Shown here piece by piece: positions 28,195 through 30,851 of a stretch of DNA of 64,000 nucleotides (positions are counted from its first letter, which is position 1; the number at the start of each line of letters is the position of its first letter). This stretch comes from Klebsiella phage LPKP23. The stretch is taken from the sequence record PV112478.1; one strand, written 5' to 3'. The notes below the pieces were generated by a model. The model was not told where the DNA came from. It did no database searches and saw only the letters and a program-made list of their open reading frames with translations. The translations under genes and the position numbers were made by a program.

Positions 28195-29976
28195 TTACAA
28201 CCACTGCGCCGCACGTTGACGAATAGTACGAAGACTTTCCAGTACTTTCACGTCGCCGTTCAGGTACACAGTCCGCATCGCGTCAACCTCACTACCGCGA
28301 AGCGCTTCATACTCTTCACGGGTCAGGTTATCACGGAGTTCGAGTTTTCCGTTCTCGCCCTTCGCAACGATCAGATAACCTTTCGCTGATTTCTTAGTAC
28401 CATCGTCGGTTTTCGGGTTTTTCGCGATAGAGTAATGTTTACCGTTAACCTTCCCAGCGGTCGCCTTCATGGCGATGCCCAGGGTGTCACGGGTAACATA
28501 CTGGAATTCGAAACTGCCCACACCAAAGACCACGTTGGAACTACAGAACCCATTCGCTTTCAAACGAGAAAGGATCTGAGTCATGCGAGTCAATGTGATC
28601 GCATCCCCGTAGATCAAACCGACGTGAGGGTCCAGTTCTTTGTAACCCGCAGCATTGGTTGTCCCGCCGAAGATTTCAAAGAGGATTTGTACCGCCCCTT
28701 TTTTCTCTTCCAAAGAAATAGGTTTACCGCTTTTAGTCGAATAGAAAACGTTGTCGATACAATAGCATTCGTATCCGTTTTCAATAGAAAAACGACGAAG
28801 GAATTCTTCCGTCTTTTCTCGACCTATTTCGGAATAGAGCGTTTTTCCACCAATTCGCGGGTCAGGATAAATACCAGCGGAAAGATGATTATCGCCATCC
28901 CAAGTATAACCACAGAGGATGTGATACGGATTACCGCTATCCGGACGATAGACCAGTTTACCGTCACGCGCCATAATCGCATCTTTATTAGCGATGGCTT
29001 TGGTGGTGATGGTATCGAAGAAGTCGTTAGTATCGCTGACGAAGCTGAAAACGCCAGACGGATAAACTTCGGTGATCAGTCGACGTTGGAAAAGTTCTTC
29101 CGCTTTCGACAGTAGTTCCGCTTCAGTCGCATCGCGATATCCCGGAGTAGCTTGTAACTGCTCGACATAGACCGCGATATTCAGACAGGTCACACTGTGC
29201 TCTGTAGCGGGTACACTCCCGGCGATTTCAGAAATCGGCATATCGCCTTCTGGGTTATAAAAGCGATTCGCTGTCCAGACCGAAGGGAAGCTATCGCTCC
29301 CTTTGAAGTAGATCAATTGACCGACTGAACTGTTGGCATCATCGAACATCCCCGACATACCGCGCAGGGCGAAGTTATGGGATTGGTAGTCGATAAAGGC
29401 TTTTGCCGCACCCGTTTCGTTAGCGTACTGTTCTAACACTCGACGGAAGTGCAACGCTTTCGTTGCCAGCACACATGGCTTCCAGAGTTCGTTACTCCAG
29501 AGGTCTTCGAAATAACCCGTCAGCCACCCGAAGCCGTCAACTGTGTTTTCAATCGTCAGGAACGGAACACGAATAGGGACGAGTGAGCCTTCCGGCACCG
29601 CACGGATCTCCAGTGGGATATAACCCAGTTCGTGAAGCGCTTTCAGGTGAGCGGATTTCACCACACCTTTACCCAGAACACCGTCCATGTACTGAAGGTA
29701 TTCTGCCTCCGATTCGTTGAACGGCGCTTTAAAGAAGTTATCGAAACTCCCTACCAACCAACGCAGAACCAGGCGCTGCATTCCCATGAACACCGAACCG
29801 TCGAAGTCCAGTGGCGTATTGAAGTACGTATGGCTACGTGCCGTCAGGTTTTCAAAGAAGCTGTCAGTGCCCAGAGGTTGTTGGTTGATGTGCCCAGTTT
29901 TGTAGGCATCGCACAGCAGGAAAACCAGCGGATCTTCAGTATAGAACTTTGGGTCTTTCAGTAAAGGGTTGGTCAT
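28195..29976 (-). CDS. nicotinamide phosphoribosyltransferase family protein (NadV / NAMPT-like; possibly the Namat-type enzyme of an NAD+ reconstitution pathway)
   Basis: Collinear matches to NAMPT: LLCDAYKTGH, HNFALRGMSG...FKGSDS, VPATEHSV, VSDTNDFFD, YRPDSGNPY and IYGDAI. The protein is 593 aa against about 490 aa for typical NAMPT. Confidence 0.85.
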   Translation of the reverse strand: MTNPLLKDPKFYTEDPLVFLLCDAYKTGHINQQPLGTDSFFENLTARSHTYFNTPLDFDGSVFMGMQRLVLRWLVGSFDNFFKAPFNESEAEYLQYMDGVLGKGVVKSAHLKALHELGYIPLEIRAVPEGSLVPIRVPFLTIENTVDGFGWLTGYFEDLWSNELWKPCVLATKALHFRRVLEQYANETGAAKAFIDYQSHNFALRGMSGMFDDANSSVGQLIYFKGSDSFPSVWTANRFYNPEGDMPISEIAGSVPATEHSVTCLNIAVYVEQLQATPGYRDATEAELLSKAEELFQRRLITEVYPSGVFSFVSDTNDFFDTITTKAIANKDAIMARDGKLVYRPDSGNPYHILCGYTWDGDNHLSAGIYPDPRIGGKTLYSEIGREKTEEFLRRFSIENGYECYCIDNVFYSTKSGKPISLEEKKGAVQILFEIFGGTTNAAGYKELDPHVGLIYGDAITLTRMTQILSRLKANGFCSSNVVFGVGSFEFQYVTRDTLGIAMKATAGKVNGKHYSIAKNPKTDDGTKKSAKGYLIVAKGENGKLELRDNLTREEYEALRGSEVDAMRTVYLNGDVKVLESLRTIRQRAAQWL

Positions 29977-30851
29977 TTCACGCGTCCATCTTTAGCAGTT
30001 AAATAAGATTGGGTTGGTAACCCGTCGTCAGTGATATTTTCCCACCAAACGTTGGTTGAGAAAATCTGATCAAAAGCGATAGAGAGTTCGCCCAGGCCCT
30101 TAGAAAAAATTCCATGGGTCACGAAGAGACTGAGCGATTTCGGGTTTTGGGTATTGAGCTTTTTCGCCAGCTCAGTGAAAGTCCACCCACCATCGCAGAT
30201 GTCGTCGACAACCAACAAATTACGACCTTCGATATTGTCATTGTCCAATAACGTAATGTCGAGAATGTTGCCGGTTTTAGTATCGCGCTTTTTGTTTGCG
30301 TAAACGATAGGCACCCCGCCGAGTAGTTTTGCCAACTCTTCAGTTTTCTTCGCCGCACCACCGTCAGGGGAGACTAATACGACGTTATTTTCCCGAATCC
30401 AATTAGCCAATAAATTGTAGACAATTTTGGACTGTTCCAGGACGACGAGGTTTTTGATCAGTGCCGGAGTAACGTTAGAATGCGGATCGTGTATCAGCAC
30501 TCGGTCTGCTTTCAGGCTATTGAACAGTTCAGCAAAAACGCCGAGTGAAAACGATTCGCCTGCATTACAGACACGGTCTTGTCGCGCGTACGGGAAATAA
30601 GGCACAATTAAATGGAGTTCTGTTTTCGCAGTGTATTTCCCAATACGACGAATAGCGTCGACCAGTAACAGTAGACGCACTGCCTCGGTGGAAGATTTGA
30701 TACTTCCTTCTATTTTAACAACGCCGATATCATGGGGCGGTAGCCCATGACGGTTAATTGTGATATGTTCCTCGCCACCCGGAAAAGTCATATTCTCATA
30801 AAGGACCGGTTGGTCATCAAACGTAACTTTAAACATTGTAACCCCTTTCAA
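29973..30851 (-). CDS. ribose-phosphate pyrophosphokinase (Prs) family protein (possibly Adps-like)
   Basis: VPYFPYARQDR matches the Prs motif and VVDDICDGGWT is a PRPP-binding-type loop. The Prs DLHA.QIQGFF ribose-5-phosphate loop is absent or altered (DPHSNVTPALIKNL). There is a 4-bp ATGA overlap with the NAMPT-like gene. Confidence 0.75.
   Translation of the reverse strand: MKGVTMFKVTFDDQPVLYENMTFPGGEEHITINRHGLPPHDIGVVKIEGSIKSSTEAVRLLLLVDAIRRIGKYTAKTELHLIVPYFPYARQDRVCNAGESFSLGVFAELFNSLKADRVLIHDPHSNVTPALIKNLVVLEQSKIVYNLLANWIRENNVVLVSPDGGAAKKTEELAKLLGGVPIVYANKKRDTKTGNILDITLLDNDNIEGRNLLVVDDICDGGWTFTELAKKLNTQNPKSLSLFVTHGIFSKGLGELSIAFDQIFSTNVWWENITDDGLPTQSYLTAKDGRVK

Follow-up and report, generated by a model that had tools for sequence, protein, structure and literature searches.

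The 64,000-nucleotide stretch of Klebsiella phage LPKP23 analysed here (sequence record PV112478.1; hereafter the window) carries two overlapping genes, adps and namat, that very probably function together as NARP1, a phage counter-defence module against depletion of nicotinamide adenine dinucleotide (NAD+). Specifically, the genes encode a protein of the phosphoribosyl pyrophosphate (PRPP) synthetase family, Prs, predicted to act as an ADP-ribose (ADPR) pyrophosphate synthetase, and a Nampt-family protein predicted to act as a nicotinamide ADPR-transferase. We base this assignment on the Adps and Namat signatures of the two proteins themselves. The original prediction, made from the nucleotide sequence, had leaned towards NARP1 over ordinary NAD+ salvage, a preference borne out by all sequence-level tests that we ran and by the tables of Osterman et al. 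2024 (bioRxiv 10.1101/2024.02.11.579819). The finding itself is already known: the pair is counted among the 859 NARP1 operons of that study, because both members are tabulated there as proteins of Serratia phage KpXa_1 (MN871449.1). The window Adps is identical over its full sequence to MN871449_00227, listed in Table S1 ('Adps homologs') with 'Namat within 10 genes: Yes', and its 593-residue partner matches MN871449_00228, listed in an excerpt of Table S2 as an 'Adps-associated' Namat, over the sequence that this excerpt covers; the coding DNA is 100% identical to that of KpXa_1. One mark of NARP1 is a Prs-family gene lying no more than 10 genes from a Nampt-family gene in a phage, and here the two are adjacent and overlap by 4 nt. 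The locus is laid out as follows.

30885-31424, minus strand: frd, dihydrofolate reductase (179 residues; PF00186, E=2e-29)
30842-30847, minus strand: AAGGGG Shine-Dalgarno sequence, seen directly in the sequence, 5 nt 5' of the adps ATG
29973-30836, minus strand: adps, Prs family, predicted ADPR-pyrophosphate synthetase (287 residues from the ATG at 30836; mechanical open reading frame (ORF) 30851-29973)
29973-29976, minus strand: ATGA overlap of adps stop and namat start, four bases, read from the sequence
28195-29976, minus strand: namat, Nampt family, predicted nicotinamide ADPR-transferase (593 residues)

Both ORFs lie where the original prediction had located them, with one correction to the Prs-like protein. 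Read from the first TTG (30851) it has 292 residues, yet the true start is almost certainly the ATG at 30836, giving 287 residues, because the Shine-Dalgarno sequence stands 5 nt upstream, annotated relatives have 287 residues and homologues begin at the same methionine. The predicted four-base overlap is real; the junction reads ...GTGAAATGACC..., an arrangement allowing translational coupling of adps and namat. The genes are transcribed head to tail in the order frd, adps, namat, so that the pair, which had been described as upstream of frd, is so in plus-strand numbering only and lies downstream of it by transcription. The 48-nt gap between frd, the gene directly 5' of adps on the same strand, and the adps ATG holds no terminator-like site, and the three genes are probably co-transcribed as one transcript, although frd is genomic context and not part of NARP1. 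A search of 27400-31800 for promoters and terminators gave no clear excess over shuffled controls (9 sites versus 6.3±2.5; 7 versus 4.4±1.7), and we claim no transcript boundaries from it.

The family assignments of both proteins are unambiguous, with scores far beyond chance. The 593-residue protein matches PF04095, PF18127 and phrog_448 ('nicotinamide phosphoribosyl transferase', E=8e-163), and the Prs-like protein matches PF00156, PF13793, phrog_619 (E=2e-88) and the broad subfamily model TIGR01251, whose cut-off of 113 bits it passes with 131 bits. Below TIGR01251, none of the 11 NCBIfam Prs models reached its cut-off (64-107 bits against 296-536; for example, 102 against 297). A hidden Markov model of 17 other Adps scored the protein at 283 bits, against 90 bits with the Prs model. 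Prs and Adps were split in 100 of 100 neighbour-joining bootstraps of a small reference set (3 Prs, 19 Adps), which placed the window protein on the Adps side, among the Adps of Gram-negative phages and nearest to that of Klebsiella phage 0507-KN2-1 (52% identity). Cellular class I PRPP synthetases (E. coli, B. subtilis and human PRPS1) share with it the two-domain fold family, the RQDR motif, the histidine, the catalytic lysine and the ribose-site DD, but are only 22-25% identical to it; by the alignment described below, it lacks their N-terminal helix, QIQGFFDxPxD segment, threonine of DTGGT and C-terminal regulatory and filament module. With the equivalog models failing and three Prs sequence features absent or altered, the protein does not appear to be a canonical Prs.

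Residue-level evidence points the same way. The original prediction had proposed aligning the protein to bona fide Prs and Adps, and in this alignment it proved Adps-like throughout in the features that separate the families. The comparison covered four experimentally supported Adps (SPbetaL1, Bas63 and FADO, Osterman et al. 2024; ICP1, PMC13586617), 14 further Adps from Osterman Table S1 and three Prs (E. coli Prs, taken from its genome, and B. subtilis Prs and human PRPS1, verified as identical to PDB 1DKR and 8DBC), with residues mapped from the text of PMC13586617 and our own alignment. The Adps positions discussed below are the following.

30459-30488, minus strand: DPHSNVTPAL, residues 117-126, in place of Prs DLHAxQIQGFF and followed by an 8-residue deletion
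30291-30293, minus strand: codon of the catalytic lysine, Lys182, aligned with ICP1 Lys185 and SPbetaL1 Lys162
30177-30206, minus strand: pyrophosphate (PP) loop DDICDGGWTF, residues 211-220, with the Adps-type Cys214, Gly216 and Phe220

The window Adps retains every residue found important in ICP1 Adps: Phe18, Arg85, His119, Asp158, Lys182, Asp211, Asp212 and Asp215 are all kept, corresponding in the acceptor groove to ICP1 Arg87, His121, Asp161, Asp212, Asp213 and Asp216 (PMC13586617), and the lysine is essential in both ICP1 (Lys185) and SPbetaL1 (Lys162; PMC13586617; Osterman 2024). These conserved catalytic residues indicate an active enzyme and not its specificity, because Prs keeps them too. 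The family is separated instead by the loops and termini. As predicted, VPYFPYARQDR (residues 78-88) and a PRPP-type loop, VVDDICDGGWT, are present, and DLHAxQIQGFF is replaced by DPHSNVTPAL. The roles first given to these segments were mistaken, however: DLHAxQIQGFF is not the ribose-5-phosphate (R5P) loop, which in Prs is the DDxxDTGGT R5P/PP motif, and this supposedly retained loop is the one remodelled in Adps. The Prs form is DDM(I/A)DT(G/C/A)GT(L/I), and the window protein has Gly216 for the threonine and Phe220 for the leucine or isoleucine; among 19 Adps the loop carries cysteine in 13, glycine at the Prs threonine position in 14 and phenylalanine at the Prs leucine/isoleucine position in all 19. 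The QIQGFF stretch belongs to the regulatory and interface regions of Prs. Its replacement is nonetheless a true difference between Adps and Prs, whose counterpart reads DLHAxQIQGFFDxPxD, and DPHSNVTPAL is near-identical to EPHSDVTPAL of SPbetaL1 and DPHSDVTPAL of ICP1. In the ICP1 structures the remodelled PP loop, a conserved feature of Adps, now serves as the site for the ATP donor (PMC13586617). The window protein further has the Adps-only Ile191 in the hairpin, and it ends 43 residues past THGIF with no AEAIRR...SVSxLF segment, that is, without the C-terminal alpha11-alpha12 filament and regulatory module, whose absence is a defining Adps signature (PMC13586617).

The partner is equally distinctive. 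Its best match among solved structures is PDB 9W5W/9W5X, the SPbetaL1 Namat (401 bits), compared with about 140 bits for mammalian Nampt; a human NAMPT query had 2GVG as its top full-length PDB match (1131 bits over residues 1-491). In a six-sequence alignment including Bas63 and SPbetaL1 Namat, KVP40 Nampt and human NAMPT, it is 45.5% identical to both Namat and 28% identical to KVP40 Nampt and human NAMPT, and so belongs to the Adps-associated (Namat) clade and not to the Nmnat-associated clade of KVP40. The Namat core of SPbetaL1 (Asp13, Tyr15, Phe189, Arg192, Asp215, Arg306 and Asp308 plus the catalytic histidine; PMC12774641) is intact as Asp23, Tyr25, Phe202, Arg205, Asp228, His260, Arg344 and Asp346, and Ala459 is also conserved. 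Three segments of the gene are discussed below.

29803-29844, minus strand: clamp loop region TARSHTYFNTPLDF, residues 45-58, as long as the Bas63 loop TPRSDKWFNSPLAI and exceeding that of SPbetaL1 by 4 residues
28927-28947, minus strand: RPDSGNP catalytic motif, with Arg344 equivalent to SPbetaL1 Arg306 and Asp346 to Asp308
28486-28518, minus strand: clamp helix GSFEFQYVTRD, residues 487-497, with Phe489 (position 3) and Tyr493 (position 7) at the adenine-stacking positions

Substitution of the motif arginine (R306G/A) destroys SPbetaL1 Namat activity (Osterman 2024; PMC12774641). The clamp helix fits the Namat consensus GSX-phi-X-phi-X-phi-TRD (PMC12774641) and resembles GSFTYQYNTRD of SPbetaL1 and GSYTYQYMTRD of Bas63, in contrast to the GGGLLQxLxRD of KVP40 and human Nampt. 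The clamp loop of Namat gives an adenine-stacking residue, which is either an arginine in third position or the residue that follows a Lys/Tyr (PMC12774641). In the window protein ARSHTYFNTP aligns with PRSDKWFNSP of Bas63, so that Tyr51 and Phe52 face the Bas63 Trp/Phe and are candidates for the stacking residue. The second-best Nampt-family match, PDB 9KE8/9KEO (302 bits; motif GAQTYQRNTRD), was not used as a reference, as we found no paper describing it.

Several features of Namat enzymes stand apart from this argument. Relative to SPbetaL1 Namat (491 residues) the window protein has two insertions, at residues 267-295 (29092-29178, minus strand) and 358-424 (28705-28905, minus strand); the site of the second is shared with Bas63 Namat, which has a large insertion there and the same total of 593 residues, and the inserted sequences are unrelated. 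In a more distant relative (positions 1-2316 of a contig from Logan SRR32022543), a 313-residue intein-like insertion lies inside the motif, as RPD|SGNP; it begins with cysteine and ends ...VSGN before a serine, has weak Pfam matches to Hint_2 and LAGLIDADG_3 (E about 0.01-0.02), and is flanked by Namat halves 93% and 69% identical to the window protein. The ICP1 Namat (MW794158.1; 4024-5343 of the examined piece) is annotated as a 439-residue 'hypothetical protein' with a GTG start and lacks about 60 N-terminal residues holding the equivalents of Asp13, Tyr15 and the clamp loop; possibly its start is wrongly annotated, or else this isolate carries a split gene.

The pair is conserved and constrained across its lineage. 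The 3.5 kb around it are 100% identical to KpXa_1 (304 kb, isolated on Klebsiella pneumoniae and deposited unannotated) and 82-96% identical in eleven related records, including Klebsiella phage KpLz-2_45 (genus Siatvirus), and none of the 12 related jumbo phages lacks the pair. Taken as a whole, the window matches KpXa_1 by blastn at 96.4-99.0% identity in four blocks, with two stretches unmatched; our whole-genome statements refer to KpXa_1, the nearest complete relative, and not to the genome of the window itself. Ratios of non-synonymous to synonymous substitution rates relative to KpLz-2_45 are 0.03 for adps and 0.056 for namat (synonymous divergence about 0.18-0.20), and both genes are under strong purifying selection.

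Among characterized systems, one of the closest parallels is NARP1 of Bas63 (Escherichia phage JohannRWettstein, genes 79-80), the in vivo prototype of Osterman et al. 2024. It shares the order adps then namat, a 593-residue Namat with a large insertion after the RPDSG(D/N)P...GY motif, the clamp-loop length and a DDICDGG-type Adps PP loop (45.5% identity for Namat and 33% for Adps). It differs in having a 45-nt gap between the genes instead of the 4-nt overlap and in its unrelated insertion sequence, whereas the window pair sits in a jumbo phage of about 300 kb, directly behind frd. The biochemical prototype, NARP1 of Bacillus phage SPbetaL1, has the same Namat core and clamp-helix residues, the Adps catalytic lysine and an adps stop that also overlaps the namat start (1 nt), but its Adps is 29% identical with a Gram-positive-type loop (DDLSSFGGTF), and its 491-residue Namat lacks both insertions and carries Arg40 in a shorter clamp loop. 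Adps of Vibrio phage ICP1, the structural prototype (PMC13586617), is 35% identical and has the DDICDG loop, DPHS(D/N)VTPAL, Lys185, Phe18, Arg87 and the loss of alpha11-alpha12 in common with the window protein. By contrast, NARP2 of Vibrio phage KVP40 consists of a Nampt and a NadM-type Nmnat; it likewise uses a Nampt-fold enzyme and rebuilds NAD+ from nicotinamide, but its Nampt (GGGLLQQLDRD) is 28% identical, has no adenine clamp, prefers PRPP and has no Adps partner. The Nmnat of this system, NatV, had no tblastn match in the window at E<1, and KpXa_1 gave only a touch on the HxGH motif of a NadR-like gene (E=0.46); a NARP2 in the sense of a KVP40-type Nampt and an Nmnat in the same genome does not appear to be present.

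The original prediction had also counted the absence of a nicotinamide mononucleotide adenylyltransferase (NMNAT) in favour of NARP1. This holds for the window, where NadD and NadR of E. coli and NatV of KVP40 as tblastn queries gave no hit below E=0.3, and fails for the genome. KpXa_1 encodes at 155,772-156,983 a 403-residue NadR-like NMNAT/ribosylnicotinamide kinase without a helix-turn-helix domain (36% identical to E. coli NadR residues 66-407; PF01467 and PF13521), followed 145 nt downstream by a PnuC transporter (PF04973, E=3e-43). The cassette (155,772-157,817) lies about 9.4 kb past the window end (64000) and about 42 kb from the pair, and the NadR-like gene, next to PnuC, occurs in all twelve related phage records. 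Its best solved structure is 9X6F/9X6H (478 bits), which is Bas30_86, the NARP3 enzyme, and the cassette would be NARP3-like, in the same genome lineage as NARP1. This NMNAT does not overturn NARP1, because a NadR-PnuC pair is a self-contained nicotinamide-riboside route (PMC13464706) and the Adps and Namat calls rest on the two proteins themselves, although it leaves room for a minor side-route through nicotinamide mononucleotide (NMN). Plain salvage was to have been recognized by an NMNAT elsewhere in the genome together with conserved R5P contacts and PRPP synthesis. The NMNAT is indeed found in the nearest genome; the R5P contacts cannot separate the readings, because ADPR occupies the old ADP and R5P sites, with its distal ribose where R5P sits.

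Such plain PRPP-dependent salvage, in which a true Prs would feed a NadV-type Nampt producing NMN and the NadR-like NMNAT would finish NAD+, is in keeping with the public annotation of the pair, the TIGR01251 score, the NadR-like gene of KpXa_1 and its relatives, and the NMN that Namat makes from PRPP in vitro (Osterman 2024). We nevertheless consider it highly improbable: the small protein lacks the Prs-specific segments, has the Adps-specific ones and groups with Adps in every bootstrap; no PRPP-synthetase product was obtained with SPbetaL1 Adps (Osterman 2024); the partner carries the adenine clamp typical of Namat in place of the GGGLLQ of the PRPP-preferring KVP40 Nampt; and the NadR-like gene stands beside PnuC in a cassette of its own. 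It is also very unlikely that the pair serves a dual purpose, with NARP1 as its main function and Namat additionally using host PRPP to make NMN for the NadR-like NMNAT, as a NARP2-like bypass independent of ADPR (for example, against aRES-type defences, which yield ADPR-1''-phosphate). The documented residual PRPP activity of Namat (PMC12774641), the NMNAT domain (PF01467) in the same genome lineage and the lack of a Macro-domain Adpp beside the pair, which might make another answer to aRES helpful, speak for such use; yet SPbetaL1 Namat given both substrates made NAD+ only (Osterman 2024), the two cassettes are about 42 kb apart, and the NadR-PnuC cassette was sufficient alone in the NARP3 study (PMC13464706).

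A few observations do weigh against the NARP1 assignment, mostly as departures from the structural prototypes. In Namat, the first phi position of the clamp helix is glutamate where threonine or serine is usual, and Thr50 takes the place of SPbetaL1 Arg40. Of the two ICP1 aromatics that contact the ADPR adenine, Phe18 is kept and Phe92 is replaced by Cys90, but this column does not define the family, because it varies among validated Adps (Glu in SPbetaL1 and FADO, Met in Bas63). ICP1 Ala218-Ala219-Ser220 is Gly217-Trp218-Thr219 here, and the PP-loop tryptophan (codon 30183-30185, minus strand) is unique among 19 Adps, the 18 others having Gly, Arg, Ala or Met; it is common to KpLz-2_45, KpLz_1_41 and FBKp24. 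The tryptophan sits where ICP1 Ala218, Ala219 and Ser220 contact the ATP phosphates, and together with Cys90 and the altered clamp loop it could be taken to mark a diverged Adps-like enzyme with another acceptor or donor (another NDP-ribose, or a nucleotide other than ATP). We give this next to no weight, as the ICP1 contacts there are made by backbone amides at a position that is variable in other Adps, and the other catalytic and clamp residues are all retained, as are both adenine-stacking aromatics of the partner. Finally, an NMN route alongside NARP1 is chemically possible, because Namat enzymes keep PRPP-to-NMN activity in vitro, when ADPR-pyrophosphate is absent (Osterman 2024; PMC12774641), and the NadR-like NMNAT is present in the nearest complete genome.

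NARP1 activities, or rescue from NAD+-depleting defences, have been demonstrated only for the homologues from SPbetaL1, Bas63, FADO, ICP1 and P. foliorum, and we infer the substrates, products and anti-defence effect of the LPKP23-lineage pair from those of SPbetaL1, Bas63, FADO and ICP1. Under the NARP1 reading, a host defence of the SIR2, TIR or SEFIR type (Thoeris I, DSR1/2, SIR2-HerA and similar) would cut NAD+ into ADPR and nicotinamide. The 287-residue Adps would then move the beta,gamma-pyrophosphate of ATP onto the 1'' hydroxyl of ADPR, yielding ADPR-pyrophosphate and AMP, with Lys182 as the catalytic lysine and the DDICDGGWTF loop holding the ATP phosphates. The 593-residue Namat would exchange the pyrophosphate for nicotinamide, restoring NAD+ in one step, and would recognize the adenine of ADPR-pyrophosphate by means of an aromatic residue in the 45-58 loop together with the clamp-helix residues Phe489 and Tyr493. 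The ATGA overlap would couple translation of the two enzymes, probably from the single frd-adps-namat transcript.

Known NARP1 companions are the Macro-domain phosphatase Adpp and the RyR-domain protein RyDEP, and NARP1-AP is recognized by a Macro-domain protein (PF14519, PF01661 or PF20016) encoded no more than two genes away from the pair. Pfam hmmscan, less sensitive than the HHpred used by the NARP1-AP authors, found neither companion among the four neighbours: frd matched DHFR, the tailspike gene Head_binding, orf123 nothing and orf495 nothing significant. On present evidence the pair would be a core two-gene NARP1.

The gene directly after namat, orf123 (27680-28051, minus strand), has only two homologous clusters in 5.8 billion proteins and no Pfam or PHROG match; a fold search was dropped, as the AF2 model was too poor (mean pLDDT 45.6). 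A promoter-like site (10/12 matches) lies just upstream of it at 28078-28050, and in a distant metagenomic relative an ORF 57% identical to it keeps the same position. The order namat, orf123, orf495 (26161-27648, minus strand), two further ORFs and orf213 (25466-26107, minus strand) is conserved. On the other side, divergent from frd, 31571-33826 (plus strand) encodes a 751-residue protein that begins with a head-binding domain of the P22 tailspike type (PF09008, E=7e-15); with this one, the window holds at least two tailspike-like genes. Megablast finds no counterpart in KpXa_1 for two segments, 10992-13315 and 23344-25045, whereas elsewhere the window is 96-99% identical to it. The former comprises the C-terminal three-quarters of an 887-residue tailspike-like ORF (10654-13317) and looks like a swap of a receptor-binding or depolymerase domain; the latter spans ORFs of 300 and 192 residues. 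At the window end, 63678-64000 (minus strand) encodes the C-terminal 107 residues, cut by the boundary, of a KptA/Tpt1 RNA 2'-phosphotransferase (PF01885, E=1e-17), an enzyme that uses up NAD+ and releases ADP-ribose 1''-2'' cyclic phosphate; in KpLz-2_45, a 'phosphohydrolase' lies two genes beyond it.

About the pathway itself nothing new is learned from this locus, and the practical value lies in annotation: public records name the pair 'ribose-phosphate pyrophosphokinase' and 'nicotinamide phosphoribosyl transferase', whereas the fitting names are Adps and Namat, as members of an anti-defence module. That NadV-like and NadR genes can occur together in jumbo phages has been remarked on in a general way (PMC9503650), and it is conceivable, if unlikely, that this jumbo-phage lineage stacks several NAD+ routes, namely NARP1, the NARP3-like cassette and a de facto NARP2-like route formed by the residual Nampt activity of Namat and the NadR-like NMNAT. 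If so, these phages could draw on ADPR, on imported nicotinamide riboside or on nicotinamide plus host PRPP to restore NAD+, depending on the defence they meet; the NAD+-consuming KptA/Tpt1 is encoded alongside these routes. For Klebsiella phage therapy, the presence of NARP1 leads one to expect resistance to Thoeris I, DSR, SIR2-HerA and comparable NAD+-depleting defences, an expectation to which the NARP3-like cassette of the nearest genome adds.

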